From: Centroscyllium fabricii
Taxonomy: Eukaryota
Direction: 5' to 3'
Length of the DNA: 64,000 nt
NCBI GenBank assembly: GCA_051313645.2
Contig: JBNRSN020000012.1
Location: forward strand, 147,250,001 to 147,314,000
A model generated the notes under the pieces. It was not told the origin of the DNA, ran no database searches, and was given only the letters and a program-made list of their open reading frames with translations. Both the position numbers and the translations under genes were made by a program. Positions 50,481 to 62,558 of this stretch are shown one piece after another. The stretch's first letter is position 1; each line of letters opens with the position of its first letter.

Positions 50481-53400
50481 CTATCTGTGCCGTTGGGGCG
50501 GTCGGATCATGCGGCCGGACCGTGTTGCTAGCTGTTGCTGGTTCTGCGTTGGAGTGTGGGCGGGTTTTGGTGCGGGAGGGCGACCGCGTTGTGGTGGTTG
50601 TGCGGGGACCGTGGTCTCGCCCGCTGTCACGTGTGCCGGCTTGAGCCGGTCTATTGTTACTGTTTCAGTCCTTTTGCCCATTTGTAATTCAAAAGTTTTG
50701 TTTCCCGCCCGAAGCACTCTATAAGGGCCATCGTAAGGTGGCTGTAAAGGGGCTCGGTGCCCGTCTCGTCGGATGAACACCCATTTGGCGTTTTTGATGT
50801 CTTCTGGCACCCGAGCTGCCGGCTCTCCATGCCGGGCCACTGGTAATGGTTGAAAAGCTCGTGCCGGGTTTGCCCAGTCCTTTAAATACTGGTCTGCTGA
50901 CCAGGGGGTGTTGGCCTCAGCCAAAAATTCGCCCGGTACCGTTAAAGCCTTGCCGTAGACGAGCTCTGCTGCTGAGGCGTTGAGGTCCTCTTTAACTGCC
51001 GACCGCAGCCCGAGGAGAACCCATGGAAGGCGATCGGTCCATGAAGCGTCTTTCATTGTGGCCCGAAGCGATGCCTTCATTGAGCGGTGGAACCGTTCGC
51101 ATAGGCCGTTCGCCTGTGGATGGTATGCGGTGGTCCTGTGTAGTGTCACCCCAAGGTCGCGGGCGATGGCTGCCCATAATGTCGACGTGAACTGGGGTCC
51201 TCTGTCGGAGGTGATGTCCGTGGGCACGCCGAATCGGGTGACCCATGTGGCGATGAACGCCCTGGCCAGGTCCGTGGTGTTGGTGGCAGTAAGGGGCACT
51301 GCTTCAGGCCAGCGAGTGTTGCGGTCGACCATGGTCAGTAGGTGCGTGTGTCCGCGGGATGGTGGTAGTGGCCCGACGAGGTCGATATGGACGTGGTCAA
51401 AGCGTCTGGCCGGTACCTTAAAATTTTCCAGCGGTGCCCTAATGTGCTTGTGCACTTTGGAGCGCTGGCAGGCTATGCAGGAAGTGGCCCAGGCGCGGAC
51501 GTCTTTGCGCAGGCCGCGCCATACAAACCAGGCCGATATAAGTTTAGTGGACGCGCGGACGCCGGGGTGGGACAGGTCGTGGAGGGTCGTAAAGATTCGT
51601 TCCCTCCAAGCGGGGGGTACGACGGGCCTGGGTTGCGATAACGAAACGTCGCAGCAAACGATGGTGGCAGCGGGGCTGTGCGGGACATTGGCCAAGCGTA
51701 GGCCGGGAAGTTTGGTGGCGGCGTTGAGTAGGTCGGGGTCGGTCAGCTGGTCCATGGCCAGCTGGGCGTAATCAACTGCCATTTGGGCGGCGTTGATAGT
51801 GGGGCGTGAAAGGCAGTCAGCGACCACGTTGTCGCGGCCGGAAATATGTTGAATGTCGGTTGTAAATTCCGACACGGCCGTGATTTGGCGCTGCTGCCTG
51901 GCCGACCAGGGTTCAGCGGCCTTAGCCATCGCAAACGTGAGTGGCTTGTGGTCGGTGAAGACTGTAAAGTGTCAGCCCTCCAGGAGGAAACGAAAGTGTC
52001 GCATCGCCAGATGGAGAGCTAGTAGCTCCCTATCGAAGGCGCTGTATTTTACCTCTGGGGGCCGGAGTTGCCGGCTGAAAAAGGCCAGGGGTTGCCATGC
52101 GTTGCCGGTCCACTGCTCAAAAACGGCCCCGACGGCGTAGTCGGAGGCGTCGGTGGTGAGGGCTACTCTGGCATTGGGCCTAGGGTGGGCTAGGAGGGTG
52201 GCGTTTGCCAGGGCGGTTTTGGTTGCGGTGAATGCGGTGGCGGCTTCGGCCGTCCACTCGACTGCAGCCTTGTTGGACTGCCCGCGGGTGGCCTGGTATA
52301 AGGGGGCCATGAGAGCGGCTGCTCCCGGGATGAAGCGGTTATAAAAGTTGACCATGCCTAAAAATTCCTGCAGCCCCTTAATAGAGTGCGGGCGGGGAAA
52401 TTCCTGTACCGCCTGTGCCTTAGAGGGTAGGGGTATGGCCCCTGCTTGGGAAATACGGTGGCCGAGGAAGTCGATAGTCTCTATGCCGAACTTACACTTG
52501 ATGGGGCTAAGGATGAGGCCGTGTTCGGTGAGGCGCTGGAACAGGGTCCTGAGGTGCAGGAGGTGTTCCTGAGGGGAGGAGCTGGCCACGAGGATGTCAT
52601 CGAAATAAACAAAAATGAACTTCAAGTCCCGTAGGACTGAGTCCATGAGGCGCTGGAAGGCCTGGGCCGCATTTTTAAGGCCGAAGGGCATCCTCATGAA
52701 TTCGAAGAGCCCGAAGGGGGTAATCACGGCCGTTTTGGGAATGTCCGCCGAGTGTACGGGCACCTGGTGGTAGCCACGCACCAGGTCGATCTTAGAAAAG
52801 ATCGTACGCCCTGCCAATCTGGCGGAAAAATCCTGGATGTGGGGTACGGGGTACCTATCCGGGGTGGTGGCGTTGTTGAGGCGGCGATAGTCGCCGCAGG
52901 GGTGCCAACCTCCGTCGGGCTTGGGGGCTATGTGGAGCGGGGAGGACCAGGGGCTGCTGGAGCGGCGAATTATACCGAGTTGTTCCATAGTGCGGAACTC
53001 GGTGATTGCGATCTCCAGCTTGGCTGGGTCGAGCCTACGGGCGTGTGCATGGACGGGAGGACCTGTGGTCGTTATATAGTGTTCCACCCCGTGTTTGGCC
53101 TTGCGGGCGGTGAACGTGGGGTTGGTAAGGGCGGGAAATTCCGCCAGGAGCGTGCCGTAGGCATCGCGGTCCTTGGAGCGGCATTGGGCTGCCGCGTGGG
53201 CCAGGAGTGCGGGCCCTGTGGAGCATGGGATGGTCGTCATGGTGTTTAAGTTCACCAAGCGGCGCCGAGTTACATCGACCAGTAGGCCGTTAGCGCAGAG
53301 GAAGTCTGCCCCGAGGAGGGGAGAGGTGACCTGGGCCGTTACAAACTCCCAGGTGTACGTGTGGCTCGCAAGGGTAATGGTAAGCTCGCGGATGCCGTAC

Positions 53401-54308
53401 GTTTTAATGTTGGACCCGTTGGCTGCCGCTAGTGGCGGGCCCCGGGTGCCCCGTTTGGTTTCTGCGGGGGAGGCTGGCACGATGCTGTGCTGCGCGCCTG
53501 TGTCGCAGAGGAACCTGAGGCCGGTGCTGCTGTCTGTGGCGAAGAGGAGTGCTCCTGTGTGGCCTACAGACATGGTGGAGGCTGAGTTGGGTCTGGGCTT
53601 AAAAGTGCATGGCTGTACGCAGCGGTGCGCTTTGTGCTCAAACCGCGTGTGATAGTAGCACCAGCCGGTGCTAGAGGGACGCGGTTGTCTAGGCGGGCGC
53701 GGGGCCTTAGGTTCGGGCGTAAAATTGTGCCTGGGGGGTGAATAGTTGCGCTCTACCGATGCCGAGTTATGGGCGCACGTGGTGGAGCTGGTGCGCTGCG
53801 CTGCCATCAGCCTGTCGGCTTCCTCGCCGAGTTCATCGTCGCTACGATGGGCTAGGGCCGCCAAAGCCGGTCTGATGGCGCGGGGCAATTTGAGGAGGAA
53901 GACTGTGCGAAATAGGGTGGCAGTATTGGTAGTGAGCGCCTGCATCTGACCTAGGAGGTCCGATGGGTCGGTGTCCCCGAGTTCGGGGAGGTCGAGGAGC
54001 TGGCAGTCGCGCTCAAACTGGGAAGGGGTAAACTTTTTAATTAGCGCGGCCTTAAGCGTTTCATACCTGCCTGCAGAGGGCACGTGCTGGATCGTTGACC
54101 ACATCCTATCGACGGTCGTTTGGGGCAGGGCTGTGAACACCAAGTCGTAGCGGTCGTCCCCGTTGATGCCATTTGAACGGCAGCTGGCTTCTATGCAGCT
54201 GAACCAGGCTGCTGGCCGTTGCTCCCAGAACTCGGGCAAAACAAGTCCGCGCCCGGTGCTCCGTCCAGCTCCCTGTGATCGTGGAGCTTGGTTCCTTGTA
54301 TTGGACAT
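50481..54308 (-). pseudogene. gag-pol: gag-pol with a premature stop in RNase H
   Basis: CGA>TGA at 51972-51974; YLDD>YFDD; otherwise collinear with copy 1. Confidence 0.94.
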
Positions 54309-54400
54309 GTTTTTTTTTTAAAGTCCTTGGCTGGGGTTCCTAAATCCTGCAGCAGCTTTTTTCTTTACTGGAATTCGTTCCAGTCGTCGAGGGTCACCAC

Positions 54401-54645: not shown

Positions 54646-56380
54646 GTGACATGTTTAGGGGTTTCGTTCTATTACATGATAGGCTTAGGGGTTCAGTTAT
54701 GTTACAAGATGTCAGATTTGTGGGTTCAGTTATATTACAAGGTGTCAGTTTTAGGGGTTCAGTTCTATTACAAGGTGGCAGGTTTAGGGTTTCAGTTCTA
54801 TTGCAAGACGGTATGTTTAGGCATTCATTTCTATTACAAGGAGATAGGTTTAGGGGTACAGTTCTATTACATGGTGACAAGTTATGGGGTTCTGTTCTAT
54901 TACATGGTGGCATGTTTAGTGGTTCAGTTCTACTACAAGGAGGTAGGTTTAGGGGTTCAATTCTATTTAATGGGGATATGTTTAAGGGTTCAGTTCTACT
55001 ACTAAACGATGGGTTTAGGAGTTCCGTTCTATTACAAGGCAAAGCTTTTAGGGGTTCAGTTCTATTACAATGTGTTCAATTTGGGGGTTTAGTTCTATTA
55101 CCAGGTGATAGGTTTATGTTTTCAGTTTCATTACAAGGTGTCAGTTTTAGGGGCTCTGTTCTATTATAATGCGGTACATTAAAGGTTCAGTTTTATTACA
55201 ACACTGAAGGTTTAGGGGTTCAGTTCTAGTACAATGCTGCCGGTTTAGGGGTTCCATTTTATTACAAGGTATCAGGTTTAGGGGTTCTGTTCTATTACAA
55301 GGCAAATGTTTAGGGGTTCCGTTTTTTTACTACATGGTAATTTTAGGGGTTCAGCTCTATTACAATGTGGCATGTTTAGAGGTACAGTTCTATTACAAAC
55401 CGGCGGATTTAGGGATTCAGTTTTAGTACAAGGCAACAGTTGTAGGGGTTCAATGTTATTACATGGCGACAGGTTTAGGGGTTCACATCTATTGTCAGGT
55501 TTAGGGATTCAGTTATATTACAAGGTGGCATGTTTAGGGGTACAGTTCTATTAAAAGGTGTAAGGTTTAGGGTCTCAATTTTATTACAAGACAGCAGGTT
55601 TAGGGTTTCAGTTCTATTACAATGCAACATATTTAGGGGTTCAGTTCTGTTACATGATAGGTTTAGGGGTTCCGTTATATTACAAGGTGTCAGATTTGTG
55701 GGTTCAGTTATATTACAAGGTGTCAGGTTTAGGGTTTCAGTTTAATTACAAGGTGGCAGGTTTAGGGGTACAGCTCTATTATAAGGGGGTAGGTTTAGAA
55801 GTTCATTTCCATTACAACAATGAAGGGTTAGGGGTTCCATTCTATTACAAGTCAACAGGGTTAGGGGTTCAGTTCTATTACAAGGTGGTAGGATTAAGTG
55901 TTCAGTTCTAATATAAGTTGGTAGGTTTAGGTGTTCAGTTCTATTACAAGGCGGTAGGGTTAGGAGTTCAATTCTATTACATGGCGGTAGGTTTAGGGAT
56001 TCAGTTCTATTACTAGGCGATGGGTTTAGGGGTTCCGTTCTATTATGAGGCGGTAGTTTTAGGGGTCAGTTCTATTACATGGCAGCTGGTTTAGGGGTTC
56101 AGTTCTATTACAAGGCAGCAGGTTTAGGCATTCAATTCTATTACAAGGTGGTAGGTTTAGGGGTTCTGGTCTATTACAAGGCAGTAGGTTTAGGGGTTCA
56201 GATCTATTACAAGGCAGTAGGTTTAGAGGTTCAGTTCTATTACATGGTGATAGGTTTAGGATGGGTGTGCTGCCTCGAGTGGCTTGAGCTGGGGACTCTC
56301 TAATAGTTCTACCAGGCGATGGCACCCCTCAATGTTCAATTGAGGTGCGAGCCCACTCGGGGTTCTATTGCATTGAGAAC

Positions 56381-57737
56381 TGTAGGGGGTTTAGCTGGGT
56401 GGTGTGCGAGGTCGGTTTGGCCCGTACCTGCCCGTGAGCAGTTTCGATGCACTCCCATTCCCCCTCCTGATTCTGGACACTAGGCTTATTGCCAGACTAC
56501 TGATGGTGCAATAACACAGGTAGACAAATGACTTGCGTGAGTCAAACAAACGTAAAGGTTTTATTGAAAAGAAAATTATTGATAGCACACTACAGGTAAA
56601 AACAATTCAATCGCTATATATTGGTACAGGTTTGGGAAGCGCACAACACATCGAGGGATATAAATGACAGTTTTAGCAATCCCTTAACCTTAATTCCCTC
56701 CCCCCCTATACCTATACCTAACCTGGTCAACTACCAAGGGCCAGAATTCATGCTCACCAGAGTGGGATTAATAAAACAAGGTTTTGAGTTTAGGCTCTGG
56801 TCTTTCAGGCATTCCGTCTTGACGTAGTCTTCAGGGCTGCAGTGCGTACATGCCACGCAACTTCTCGGCCCTCAGGGCTGAACGCATCGTAGTCTCACAT
56901 TTGCTGAGGCGATGAATCTTCTTCTTCTTCTTCTGAGTTGATGGAACTTCTTCTGGCAAATGAGTGCTGGGGGCCCGATCATTCGAAGCTTACCCCAGCC
57001 ACCCCAGATGCCAGCTTATCGACTTTAAACTCGCGGACAGCCACTAGTTTGGAGCGACAAATCCGTCACTCCCTTTTCTTGGGCGAGGCCTACCCTTGCT
57101 CCGGTCCGTACTGAGGTGTTTTTCACTGTCCCGCTTAGTACCTGGCCCCAGTTGAGTCCCTGCCTCATGGTATGGCATGGGCGATGGCCAAGGAGGAGTG
57201 TGGACTACAGTACGGACCGGGGTCGTGCCTGTGCATGGACCAGAGCACGAACTTTCTTCAGTTGCCCACCTTCAAGCATTCCCAAATGTCTCCGGCTGTT
57301 GTTCTCATTCACTGTCATTCCCCTGTTATACTCTTTGAATAGTGCCTTATCTTGGTGCCAAAATCAGGTTAGTCCTTTGTTTAATTTTGGCAGGCTACTG
57401 TGTATCAAAAGTCGTTACTTAATTTGAAACAACCTCAAAATGGTTGATCTCCTTCTAATGGCCTTATTTACGGCCTGGCTTTGTGTGATCTGTACCTTAA
57501 CACTGGTATGTGTAGCTGAATAGAAGTGACTTGTTTTGATGTTTTGCCCATAATAAACGCTGATCGTTATCCCATTAAGTGTCTTTTGTTTTAGCTCTGT
57601 TGCTGGGGAAAAATGACTAGTTTTTAGCTGCGGACATGTGATCCCAGACTTAATTTTGTCCATTTTTAAATGTGTCCATTTTACTGCAAGCTCCTTTGCA
57701 TGGGCTGGGAAAAGCAGGACATTTTGTGAATCCTACA
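56381..57737 (-). mobile_element. Probable solo LTR (1357 bp) of a different LTR family
   Basis: TGTAGG...CCTACA termini; 4-bp TSD GAAC (56377-56380 / 57738-57741); AATAAA on the minus strand at 56560-56565; no coding capacity. Confidence 0.8.
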
Positions 57738-58216
57738 GAACTCTCTCATGCTCCCTTGAGTTGAGTCTAGGGTTACAATGTAGCTGTGACAAAATTCTGG
57801 AGTTCTATAGCACAGTGAGTCATACCTCCATGTGGTCCCACTAGGCAGCACCCTGGCTAAACGACTCGCTGAGAAACTCCAACAAATTAGGCAGAGTAAG
57901 CAAACTTACTCAGCATCTTGCGAGTTACCGCAGGGCCATGAGCAGCTCAGGGAGCCTCAGGTCTGTAAGTCTTTCATCTCAATACTGGGGAGCCAGTGTT
58001 ACAAGTAGCTGTGGCTTCTTTTGAGTTGTAAGTCATGGTGGGTCGTACCATAAGGTTGTCCTGCTGGCGACACAAGGGTGTAGCCAAACTGACATGGGAG
58101 TAACTCAAACATGATCGGCGGCGATCATTCCTTCCCGTAGGAGGGGACTGAACAAAGAAAACAAAGCTTGATACCCTGCAGGGGTCAGACTGAGTCAAGG
58201 CCTCAGACAAGCGCCT

Positions 58217-58755
58217 ATGCCCACCACCAAATGCATCTTCCCATCACCTCCCCTTTCCGCATTTCATAGGGACCACTCCCTCCGTGACACCCTAGTCTAC
58301 TCCTCTGCCACCCCCAGCACCCCTTCCCCTTCACCCAACACCTTCCCGTGCAAGCGCAGGAGATGCAACACGTGCCCTTATAACCCCCCCTTCCCACTGT
58401 CCAGGGCCCCAAACACCCCTTCCAGGTGAAACAGCGATTTACGTGTGCTTCCTGCAATTTAGTATACTGCATTCGCTGCTCACGATGTGGTCACCTCTAC
58501 ATCCGGGAGACCAAACGCAGATTGGGTGACCACTTTGCGGAACACCTCCGTTCAGTCCGTAAGAGGGACACCAAGCTTCCGGTGGCCTGTCACTTTATTT
58601 CTCGACTCCTCTCCCATTCAGACCTCACTCTCTGTGGCCTGTTGCATTGCTCCACGGAAACTCAGCGTAAACTCGAGGAACAGCACCTCATCTTTCGCTT
58701 TGGCACTCTACAGCCCTCTAGACTAAACATAGAGTTCAACAATTTTAGATCATAA
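58217..58755 (+). pseudogene. Penelope-like (Neptune-type) Cys-linker + GIY-YIG endonuclease fragment
   Basis: FPCKRRRCNTC linker, then a frameshift, then NLVYCIRCSRCGHLYIRETKRRLGDHFAEH...VACHF...EQHLIFRFGTLQPSRLN. Confidence 0.9.
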
Positions 58756-58786
58756 CCTCGGACCCTACCACACTTTTTTATATATA

Positions 58787-59379
58787 CAGGTTGAGCACCA
58801 TTAATCCGGCACGGGCGGGACCAGGCCAGTGCCGGGAAAGTGAAAATCCCGAACGATTGAAGCTTCGGAGAGCGCATGCGCAGACCATTCAAAATGGCCA
58901 CCGTGAAATGACGGCGGCCAGTTGGAGTGATCAGCGCAAATCATTCGGCGAGTCCCGGCCCAGCATCATTCGGATGGTCCCGGCCCACGTTCGGAAATTC
59001 TTGCCCAGCCCGCGTTCGAGGAATCCCGGCCCAGCCCGCGTTCGGGGAATCCTGGCCCAGCCCGCGTTCGGGGAATCCCGGCACAGCCCGCGGTCGGGGA
59101 ATCCCGGCACAGCCCGCCTTTGGGGAATCCTGGCCCAGCCCGCGTTCGGGGAATCCTGGCCCAGCCCGCGTTAGGGGAGTCCTGGCCCAGCCCGCTATTG
59201 GCTCGGAGAGACTATTGTGAATGATCTGCGCATGCACTCGCCGTTCGGCGGCGCATGCGCAGATCATTTGCCGAAGCATCAATCGCGCCGGCCATTTTGC
59301 GCGGCGCAGTCAGGGAAATTATTGCCGGACGTTCGAAGCTGCCGGTTTTTCGGGTAACGGATTAACGGTGCTCAACCTG
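58787..59379. mobile_element. Tc1/mariner Tigger-like MITE (593 bp)
   Basis: 22-bp TIRs CAGGTTGAGCACC(A/G)TTAATCCG with one mismatch; TA TSD on both sides. Confidence 0.9.
59004..59195 (+). repeat. 26-bp GC-rich minisatellite inside the MITE (~7.5 units)
   Basis: CCCAGCCCGCGTTCGGGGAATCC(C/T)GG at 26-bp spacing. Confidence 0.92.
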
Positions 59380-59617
59380 TAAATATTTTCTCTCTTTTTT
59401 CAATCCACACTTTCATCTGGGCTTTTTTTCTTTTTTCTCTTTTTTCTTTACTCTGCCAGAGCTGTTCACACCTATCCAGAGCCATCCTGTGTTCCTTGAA
59501 TTTCTCCCTATGTCTCTTATCTCCCCTGCCTTCTAGCCTGTCGCTGAATCCCCTTTGTTCTTTCAGCCCCTCCCCCTTTCCCCAGCCCCCACCAGCTTTC
59601 AAATCTATCCCCTCTCC

Positions 59618-59654
59618 AGTTCTGACGAAGGGTCTTCGACCTGAAACGTTAACT
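59618..59654 (+). ncRNA. Minimal type I hammerhead ribozyme in the Penelope pLTR
   Basis: AGTT-CTGACGA-AGGGTCTTCGACCT-GAAAC-GTT-AACT: intact core, stem I AGTT/AACT, stem II hairpin, palindromic ACGT stem III. Confidence 0.85.
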
Positions 59655-62558
59655 CTGTTTCTCGCTCCACCGATGCTGCCTGGCCTGCTGAGTTTCTCCA
59701 GCGTTTTCTGTTGTTGTTTTGGATTTCCAGCATCCGCAGTGTTTTGCTATCGCGATAGGTTTAGGGGTTCAGTTCTATTACTAGGCGATGGGTTTAGAGG
59801 TTCCATTCTATTACAAGGCAGCAGGTTTAGGGGTTCAGGTCTATTACTAGGCGACAGGTTTAGGGCTTCAGTTTTATTACTAGGTGGCCTCTTTAGGGGT
59901 CCAATTCTATTACAAGGTGTCAGGTATAGGGGTTCAGTTATATTACTAGGTGGGCGGTTTAGCGGTTCAGTTCTATTACAAGGCGGTAGGTTTGGGGTTA
60001 TATTCTATTACAAGACGACAGGTTCAGGGTTTCAGTTCTATTACAAGGTGGCAGGTTTAGGGGTTCAGTTCTATTTCTAAGCGGCAGGTTTAGGGGTTTA
60101 ATTCTATTACAAGGTGTCAGGTTTAGGGGTTCAGTTCTTTTACTAGGTGGCAGGTTTCAGTGTTCAATTCTATTACAAGGTGTCAGGTTTAGGGGTTCAG
60201 TTATATTACAAGGTGTCAGGTTTAGGGGTTCAGTTATTTTACTTGCCGACAGGTGTAGGGGTTCAGTTCTAGTACTAGTTGGCAGGTTTATGGGTTCAGT
60301 TGAATTACAATGTATCAGCTTTAGGGGTTCCATTCAATTACAAGGAGGCAAGTTTAGGGGTTCAGTTTTATTAGATGATGTCAGGTTTAGGGGTTTAGTT
60401 CTATTACTAGGTGACAGGTTTAGCTGCTCAGTTCTATTACAAGCTGAGAGGTTTAGGGGCTCGGTTATTTTACTAAGTGTCAGGTTTCGGGATTCAGCTC
60501 CATTACAAGGCGACAGGTTTAGGGGTTCCGTTCTTTTACAAAGTGTTAGGTTTGTGGGTTCTGTTCTATTACAAAGTGTCAGGTTTGTGGGTTCAGTTCT
60601 ATTACTAGATAGCAGATTTAGTGTTCACTTCTATTACAAGGTGGCAGGTTTACGGGTTCAGTTCTATTACTTAGCAGCAGGTTTACGGGTTCAGTTCTTT
60701 TACTAGGCAGCAGGTTTTGGTGTTCAATTCTATTATAAGTTGTCAGGTTTAGTGGTTCAGTTATATTACAAGGTGTCAGGTTTAGGGGTACAGTTCTATT
60801 ACTAAGCGGCAGGTTTAAGGGTTCAGTTCTTTTACTAGGCGGCAGCTTTTGGATTTCAATTCTATTACAAGTTGTCATGTTTAGGGGTTCAGTTCTATTA
60901 CTAGGTAGCAGGTTTAGTGTTCAGTTCTATTACTAAGGGGCAGGTTTAGGGGTTCAGTTCTTTTACTAGGTGGCAGGTTTTGGTGTTCAATTCTATTACA
61001 AGTTGTGAGGTATAGGGGTTCAGTTCTATTACTTGGTGGTAGGTTTAGGGTTTCAGTTCTATTACTAGGTGGCAGGTTTAGGGGTTCAGTTCCATTACAA
61101 CATGTCAGGTTTAGGGGTTCAGTTCTATTACAATGTGTCAGGTTTAGAGGTTCAGTTCCATTACAAGATGGCATGTTTAGGGGTTCAGTTCAATTACAAG
61201 ATGGCATGTTTAGGGGTTCAGTTCTATTAGAAGGTGTCAGGTTTAGGGATTCTGTTCTATTACAAGATGGCATGTTTAGGGGTTCAGTTCTATTACCAGG
61301 AGGCAGATTTAGGGGTTCAGTTCTATTGCAAGGTGACAGGTTTAGATTATCATTATCCATTTATTTCACTGTGTGAAACCGCAGTCTGACAGAGAACATG
61401 CATCCTATAAAATAGAAAATTAAACCCCTGTCTTTACCTGAGCCAAAGTTCTAATTCCAGAATTCTCCAGCTGATGAAATCTTACGTGGGCTGGCAGATG
61501 TGGTTGGTTGGTTGACCTAAAGGATTTGACCTCTGACGGAAAGAGCATCAATTTCTCCTTCTTTCTTTTCAGTTTTTTTTTGTCAGCTGCCTGTCACCAA
61601 ATATCATTCTCTAGCTATGAGGGCGAGGGAATCGAAGGCAATGGCTTGTCCGTGGTTGCAATTTGTGCTGTTAACAATCGTTCAGCAAGAAATGACACTG
61701 ACCTGACTTGGAATCAACAGCACCAGTTGGGCCTCTCCATCTCCCCAAAATGGAACCTCTTAATTCGTATATCGCCTGGCAATCTGGCTGAACTGACGAC
61801 AGTCCTGTGCCTTAAATATAAAATCTTTTATTTGGGAGTCAAGCACTCAACTATTTGATCTCTAAGGCCAGCCAGAAAGAAAGTGACTCAATGATCGCAC
61901 TACCCAGATAATTCTGCTGTGACCTTAATTTTCAGATAGTTTTGAATTTCCGCCTTTTGGTAAGTCAACAGAGCAGCTAGGTATATTTTATGGTACCGAT
62001 GATGGGAAAGCCAAGAATCCACTTAGACAAATTCCCAGAACAGAAAGAGATGCATCTCTTAATGCATTGCAGGAGGGGTAAAAAAAACACTTGGGAGCTG
62101 TAATCAGAGACAGACTGTACACATGTCAATGGTTTCATGTGCTTTGCCCACAGACAAATTCTGCACACAGCTGCTGTCAGTGTTATTTGTGATCAAACTC
62201 AGGATCAGTCAGCTAGACTGGTTATCTTCATTTCTTCAGCACAGTCTCAACTTCTGCCACTTACAGCTACCTGTCACTTGCAGTAGCAGTGAGGCTTTGA
62301 CATGGGTGATTTTTTTTGTTGCAGTTTCCATTAACAATAAGTAAGAACTGAAATGCAAAACCTCTTTGATGCCAGACTTTTTCCTGGAATAAGTCTCCAG
62401 TGCAGAAGGAGGGTTAAATATATCAGAACTGCTTTGACTGCCAATGAGACAGAAATTGATTTTATACAGACACTTTAACCTTTTTATCTTAACTTATGTC
62501 CCTCCCCTTTCCATTTATCATTTGCCACCCACATTCTCCCCTATCCCCATCCCCCCAC

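Follow-up and report, generated by a model that had tools for sequence, protein, structure and literature searches.

How did a hairpin-dense, non-coding stretch of sequence come to be joined to the 3′ part of a Penelope retroelement inside a satellite array, and does the joined unit belong to an undescribed system? The unit lies in a 64,000-nt stretch of Centroscyllium fabricii contig JBNRSN020000012.1 (the window, within which all coordinates are positions), where it occupies 56261-59753 and interrupts a 33-bp satellite. Our analysis indicates that the locus is real, single-copy, and inert, and not a new system. We consider it probable that the unit is a single-copy fusion between the 5′ half of a SIDE, a non-coding derivative of the R2 retroelement, and a 5′-truncated Penelope that likely arose in a single Penelope insertion, by a switch to SIDE RNA or by ligation with it. 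A single Penelope insertion is favored because the target-site duplication is of the Penelope kind, not that of R2, and surrounds the two halves together; the halves also share one orientation and are of similar age. The features of the locus are as follows.

54646-56260, plus strand: satellite array (33 bp), left of the unit
56249-56260, plus strand: target-site duplication, 12 bp, left copy
[quoted passage not shown]
56381-57737, no strand assigned: solo long terminal repeat (LTR), TG...CA, a later insertion with a 4-bp duplication (56377-56380 / 57738-57741)
57742-58219, plus strand: R2-SIDE 5′ part B, reaching family nt ~638
57815-57871, plus strand: HDV-like ribozyme core, degraded, with P2, P3, L3, P1 3′ strand, P4 remnant, and putative catalytic C at 57857
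57890-58095, plus strand: second HDV-like module, degenerate; P1, P3, and J4/2 C kept, L3 altered
58220-58755, plus strand: end of a Penelope-like open reading frame (ORF), 5′-truncated and frameshifted, comprising linker and putative GIY-YIG-type endonuclease
58756-59753, plus strand: Penelope pseudo-LTR (pLTR) and tail, split by the next feature; end point common to many family copies
58787-59379, no strand assigned: miniature inverted-repeat transposable element (MITE), a later insertion with TA duplication, terminal inverted repeats, and an internal 26-bp tandem repeat
59617-59657, plus strand: minimal type-I hammerhead motif of the pLTR, as read from sequence
59754-59765, plus strand: target-site duplication, 12 bp, right copy
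59754-61345, plus strand: satellite array (33 bp), right of the unit, in phase

The 12-mer that flanks the unit matches exactly on both sides and occurs five times in the window, the two flanks included. The satellite, at 4556-61345, comprises ~950 copies of its 33-bp unit (953 scored) and fills most of the window, and the GATA variant that distinguishes the 12-mer is found in 9 of 953 units in the window and 6 of 86 local units. Because this variant is rare and the phase must also agree, periodicity alone is an unlikely cause of the flank match, its chance, phase included, being estimated at ~1%. The initial annotation was thus right to see one insertion unit with a true target duplication, but it had bounded the unit at 56261..59751 with a 14-bp duplication, whereas the end lies at 59753 and the duplication is 12 bp, the extra two bases being the 3′ end found in other Penelope copies. 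The importance it gave to a TTAGG motif closing the duplication did not survive, as 0 of 8 other Penelope duplications end in TTAGG. The solo LTR and MITE, which the initial annotation had already taken to be nested, each have a duplication of their own (4 bp and TA, respectively), and they were inserted later than the fusion. No second copy of 56261-59753 was found elsewhere in the 64-kb window.

Once the solo LTR is removed, the leader consists of 56261-56380 followed by 57742-58219, 598 nt in all. It had been described as ~590 nt of hairpin-dense sequence fused at ~58217; the length was nearly correct and 57739-58217 indeed has a more stable fold than any of its 100 shuffles (z -3.5), but the junction falls at 58219|58220 and 56261-56381 folds weakly compared with shuffles (z -1.75). 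In 29 other fetched loci the two leader halves are contiguous, Penelope sequence follows in 0 of 29, and the family continues ~690 nt past the point where the window copy ends. The leader, first thought to be undescribed, corresponds in sequence to nt ~39-638, the 5′ half, of a SIDE-like R2 derivative that does not code for protein. This family, ~1,300 nt long, has no long frame, the longest stop-free stretch being 89 aa at locus L002 and 98 aa in a young form, and its head is 28S rRNA sequence from upstream of the R2 site (Rfam LSU match). An exact 25-mer of the 28S-derived head has 18 matches in the genome: 2 in insert-free 28S, 5 at the heads of a ~4.55-kb element, 7 in a young 1.19-kb element, 3 in very short inserts, and 1 in a dispersed copy. 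The ~4.55-kb element encodes a protein that matches solved R2 proteins (E 1e-158) and, by that measure, is the autonomous R2 of the 28S genes. The dispersed SIDE family, the young 1.19-kb element, and the autonomous R2 have a common ribozyme core and structured 3′ end; in SIDE and R2 the terminal ~50 nt carry two matching hairpins, and the last 12-13 nt are identical. A tblastn search with the R2 protein against SIDEs gave weak traces (E 0.007 and 0.17).

On the Penelope side, 15 sibling copies extend upstream of the position equivalent to 58220 into the ORF. Because they do so, the missing reverse transcriptase (RT) reads as plain 5′ truncation of this copy, and the class of RT-less Penelope elements that the initial annotation had named is not supported. 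The 123-aa endonuclease piece gave no Pfam match and nothing significant in a PDB sequence search; its homologues (E 1e-31) have weak GIY-YIG matches below the cut-off, one also with RVT_1. Among them is a skate protein that has RT next to a weak GIY-YIG match, a sign of a cartilaginous-fish source. The hammerhead motif of the pLTR, with 37 matches across 40 loci, is of the usual minimal Penelope type, with traits as in PMC4209133. As a single strand the hammerhead region takes another fold (z -0.46), as expected if the hammerhead works as a dimer. Sibling copies also include inverted-pLTR forms.

The junction at 58219|58220 is blunt, with zero common bases, and joins halves of different families; the earlier description of the unit as a chimera is supported. 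Microhomology at the junction was suspected at one point and was rejected because Penelope copies have a different preceding base. In genome searches with leader query 57850-58300, the 39 other scored matches all end at or before the junction; with a junction-centered query, 0 of 39 other scored matches span it (40 of 1950 candidates scored); and a 30-nt junction pattern, allowing up to 3 mismatches, has the window as its single match. These searches found the window copy alone, and the non-autonomous family that had been proposed is not supported. The SIDE 3′ half is absent from the window, from the 10 kb before it, and from the 20 kb after it. Among contigs of four sequencing runs covering both halves, 0 of 32 pieces listed, of about 81,900, bridge the junction, a result that is uninformative; among sequencing runs, no RNA data set was listed as containing the sequence.

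The SIDE and Penelope parts are in the same orientation, which fits a template switch or RNA ligation and not twin priming (PMC13174262). Their ages also agree: private non-CpG changes amount to 11/375 (2.9%) in the SIDE part, 13/399 (3.3%) in the Penelope endonuclease part, and 7/292 (2.4%) in the pLTR (Fisher p=1.0), with 3.1% in the solo LTR. The 12-bp duplication is typical of Penelope, for which 8 of 29 copies have 11-17 nt repeats at both ends (the other 21 being unresolved or weak), as opposed to SIDE, for which 0 of 18 copies with both ends (of 19 submitted) have a duplication of at least 4 nt. In addition, the 5′ junction of the window unit is not R2-type.

Several points weigh against a single Penelope insertion that captured SIDE RNA. 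The genome searches scored 40 of ~1,950-1,983 candidates, and the unit is known from one locus, with no empty allele seen. The age test is of low power, and a consensus-based count (21/432 or 4.9% for SIDE vs 24/817 or 2.9% for Penelope) leaves a slightly older SIDE possible. No clear duplication is present in 21 of 29 Penelope copies. The jump bears no microhomology, and the end of the SIDE RNA at nt 638 is unexplained. SIDE copies also lose their 3′ part by other routes: when nine other apparently 3′-cut copies were followed, seven resumed after a nested insertion and two did not within about 16-17 kb. Finally, template jumps and capture have been proposed, not shown, for rotifer Penelopes (PMC3846280).

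The alternative that survives best, though we regard it as unlikely, is co-mobilization from a donor in which a Penelope fragment lay inside a SIDE copy, for example in ribosomal DNA (rDNA) and since purged, and whose read-through RNA was copied in trans from the pLTR tail, dropping the SIDE 3′ half. This is the weakest form of the hybrid-family idea in the initial annotation, and it would account for both the loss of the SIDE 3′ half and the bluntness of the junction with no need of a jump. Reverse transcription of Penelope-like elements (PLEs) starts internally, as shown for an anole element (PMC11167929), pLTRs have been concluded to be sufficient for mobilization in trans (PMC3846280), and R2/R1 hybrid SIDEs exist (PMC3414825). 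However, neither donor nor sibling was found among the 40 scored of ~1,950-1,983 candidates or with the 30-nt pattern, and the anole RNA needs ORF sequence downstream of its start sites (PMC11167929), which, by analogy, would be missing from a nested copy that stops at the tail. A more far-reaching reading, which strikes us as doubtful, takes the unit as the one copy left of an R2/Penelope hybrid passenger that did not last long, was two-ribozyme and non-autonomous, and bridged two retroelement classes. Such a passenger would have been born from a vertebrate SIDE lineage already spread beyond rDNA, its RNA released from rRNA by the HDV-like ribozyme and inserted by Penelope proteins via the hammerhead-bearing pLTR.

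It is likewise improbable that the unit arose by sequential insertions, first of a SIDE and then of a Penelope just downstream, followed by deletion of the SIDE 3′ half and the Penelope 5′ part, with the flank match due to periodicity. Penelope is very abundant and lies in or beside other SIDE copies (L057, L061), 3′-incomplete SIDE copies exist, and SIDE is slightly more diverged by the consensus-based measure. Yet both flanks would have to bear the rare satellite variant in duplication-like phase (about 1%) and at a Penelope-typical length, and the three-point ages are equal. An R2-driven insertion of a 3′-truncated SIDE exactly at the 5′ edge of a pre-existing Penelope copy is very improbable, for although SIDE copies do enter degenerate sites, 20 of 25 SIDE 3′ junctions lie at full-length ends with TAG after them, whereas the window copy stops internally with TAG absent, and the site would need to match the duplication edge to the base.

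For the favored history, one Penelope insertion with capture of SIDE RNA, all enzymatic steps in the following scheme are inferred. The parent SIDE family would be moved by the R2 protein, inserting at a low rate into ordinary sites with TAG(C) just 3′ of the nick. Master copies of SIDE in 28S genes would be co-transcribed with rRNA and freed at -28 by the HDV-like ribozyme, yielding abundant RNA. A staggered cut of 12 nt by the Penelope endonuclease would then open the satellite, with reverse transcription starting from the pLTR tail. After about 940 nt the enzyme would jump end-to-end onto a SIDE RNA fragment ending near nt 638; alternatively, the Penelope and SIDE RNAs may have been ligated before reverse transcription. 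Synthesis would halt ~38 nt before the SIDE 5′ end, and the cDNA would be joined to the target. The unit was dead on arrival and founded no family because it has no RT and no P1 strand.

In the SIDE head, an HDV-like fold whose P1 draws on 28S sequence starting at nt -28 could be parsed by motif anchors in 28 of 31 cores; deletions account for the three failures (L002, L017, and the window copy). All 28 parsed cores can pair P1.1, and 27 of them have the putative catalytic C. The helix names and the putative catalytic role of the C in the SIDE core follow PMC3774820 and the general pattern of HDV-like ribozymes. In the core alignment 90% of cells are paired vs 18-43% in slid controls, and compensatory (two-sided) change between lineages occurs at three positions. 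Against this, pairs with two-sided change number 3 vs 2.7 in shuffles, so covariation rests on few events, and the covariation alignment misplaces the autonomous R2 rows. P1 is 6 bp in SIDE and 7 bp in autonomous R2 by parse. With a search pattern anchored on the head, 11 of 16 SIDE heads start at -28, the other 5 start within 4 nt downstream, and none extends further upstream into 28S. These starts fit predicted ribozyme self-cleavage at -28, as in many R2s (PMC3774820). Rfam gave no ribozyme family match in the window region (hammerhead included) or in six SIDE loci. The initial annotation had also suggested different self-cleaving motifs at the two ends, which is supported by descent (HDV-like 5′, hammerhead 3′), but two working ribozymes are not supported. 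The window HDV-like copy lacks the P1 5′ strand and cleavage site (first ~38 nt gone) and has four further lesions, comprising substitutions in P1, P1.1, and P2 and a deletion in P4; because of these losses we predict that it does not cleave. All SIDE lineages checked have another HDV-like module, a degenerate one, ~155 nt after the first (window 57890-58095; L002, L019, L022-L024, L028-L030, L054, L055). Its P1 differs from that of the first module by a compensatory change; it retains P3 and the J4/2 C, whereas L3 is altered.

A search with the SIDE 3′ end gave 44 candidates, and an exact motif search gave 13 matches, so that SIDE copies number in the tens. A figure of thousands was rejected, as the 1983 candidates of the leader query are likely to come from the Penelope part. 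Among 30 sampled loci of the dispersed lineage, 28 lack any 28S sequence past the head in their 1.5-kb flanks and 2 are in 28S; insertion at the 28S R2 site is thus seen for 2 of 30 loci of the older form and for 7 of 18 head-pattern matches in the case of the young sister form. The latter, the 1.19-kb non-coding R2 derivative that occupies the R2 site of 28S (loci L032-L034, L039-L041, L046, L054, L055), has most copies 96-99% identical, is colinear with the dispersed family, differs in its last 25 nt, and has a short duplicated 3′ end; it may still be active, or it may depend on a different R2 lineage.

From 32 loci we obtained 26 SIDE 3′ junctions, 25 of them distinct, in which TAG follows 20 of 25 and TAGC 14 of 25; not all 25 are independent, as 2 are 28S itself and some share a host repeat. 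TAG(C) are the bases after the R2 nick in 28S. Empty host sites sought among the fetched loci yielded two approximate matches for one SIDE site and none for the other, and whether TAG derives from target or RNA is settled only partly. The R2 helper is mostly on target in 28S, where 9 of 16 autonomous R2 3′ ends lie; another 4 are in tandem and the remaining 3 at other places. Purging of old rDNA copies may inflate the off-target share of SIDE. SIDE insertions (plus one R2) recur independently at two positions of abundant host repeats (L005, L020, L024, L047, L061, L139; L006, L013, L028, L156), which we interpret as natural off-target hot spots of SIDE/R2 insertion. Autonomous R2 is also found in head-to-tail tandem (L050, L052, L053; G000:C745, C945), the second copy into or behind the first, and the R2 frame of locus L052 has three N-terminal zinc-finger motifs.

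The parent family resembles the Drosophila R2 SIDEs and R2/R1 hybrid SIDEs (Eickbush and Eickbush 2012, PMC3414825) in being non-coding, with an R2 ribozyme head and R2 3′ end, and, for the young form and 2 of 30 loci of the older one, in lying at the 28S R2 site; it differs in being vertebrate, with its older lineage mostly beyond rDNA. In the Drosophila hybrids, as in the window unit, an R2 ribozyme head is fused to the 3′ end of a different retroelement, whose type of duplication flanks the product. However, the Drosophila hybrids are multicopy with active ribozymes, whereas the window unit is single, lies in satellite, has a Penelope partner, and has lost its P1 strand (PMC3414825). R2 HDV-like ribozymes cleaving at -28 (Eickbush et al. 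2013, PMC3774820) likewise have a P1 5′ strand from 28S and a long J1/2, and R2 5′ junctions there have a 24-28 nt duplication of upstream 28S, as in SIDE. In contrast to those ribozymes, P1 in the putative SIDE ribozyme is 6 bp by parse and a second degenerate module follows. Endonuclease-bearing (EN+) PLEs (PMC4209133, PMC3846280, PMC11167929) share with the unit a C terminus that here is putatively of GIY-YIG type, a minimal-hammerhead pLTR, a tail, a short duplication, and frequent 5′ truncation, but on the 5′ side of the unit stands foreign RNA in sense orientation and not an inverted pLTR. In chimeric LINE-1 insertions with U6, 28S, Alu, and other RNAs (PMC13174262), foreign and often fragmentary RNA also lies 5′ of a truncated retroelement, in the same orientation and within one duplication; here, the enzyme class would be PLE and the captured RNA another retroelement's passenger. 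With regard to retrozymes, the unit has a single hammerhead and no direct terminal repeats, and two same-type flanking ribozymes were not found in it. R2 is known from cartilaginous fish (PMC13188248, PMC5035012), and R2-lineage copies outside rDNA have been described as autonomous flatworm families that lost specificity (2016, PMC5035012), whereas here the helper is still mostly in 28S. Our literature search found no vertebrate or dispersed SIDE and no Penelope/SIDE chimera; Repbase, Dfam, and supplements lay outside its scope, and the family may be catalogued there.

The locus is of value as a likely case of capture by Penelope, and because it leads to a family of R2 passengers dispersed in a vertebrate genome. 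As a chimera it would be genomic evidence that a Penelope-class enzyme can fuse cDNA to unrelated RNA, which in the literature found is only proposed, and such fusion is a step by which new passenger elements arise. The parent family is the more important of the two: SIDEs have been described from Drosophila rDNA, and here a vertebrate lineage exists in two age classes and coexists with its helper. Its non-rDNA sites keep TAG(C) 3′ of the nick (20/25), the same pattern as engineered R2 off-targets, which in human cells share sequence just downstream of the nick (PMC11371274). Given this common pattern, the SIDE sites can be taken as a natural record of R2 target choice.

The solo LTR family is dispersed independently of the unit, with 85-91% identity among the 40 scored of 3098 candidates in the genome search. 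Two same-strand copies ~11.8 kb apart at G000:C1:263116123-263129140 are probably a full-length LTR element of this family. The satellite at window 4556-61345 is broken by several unrelated insertions. A 781-aa frame at window 51972-54317 (minus strand) resembles LTR-retrotransposon gag-pol, and a similar frame lies 3′ of R2 in locus L050.

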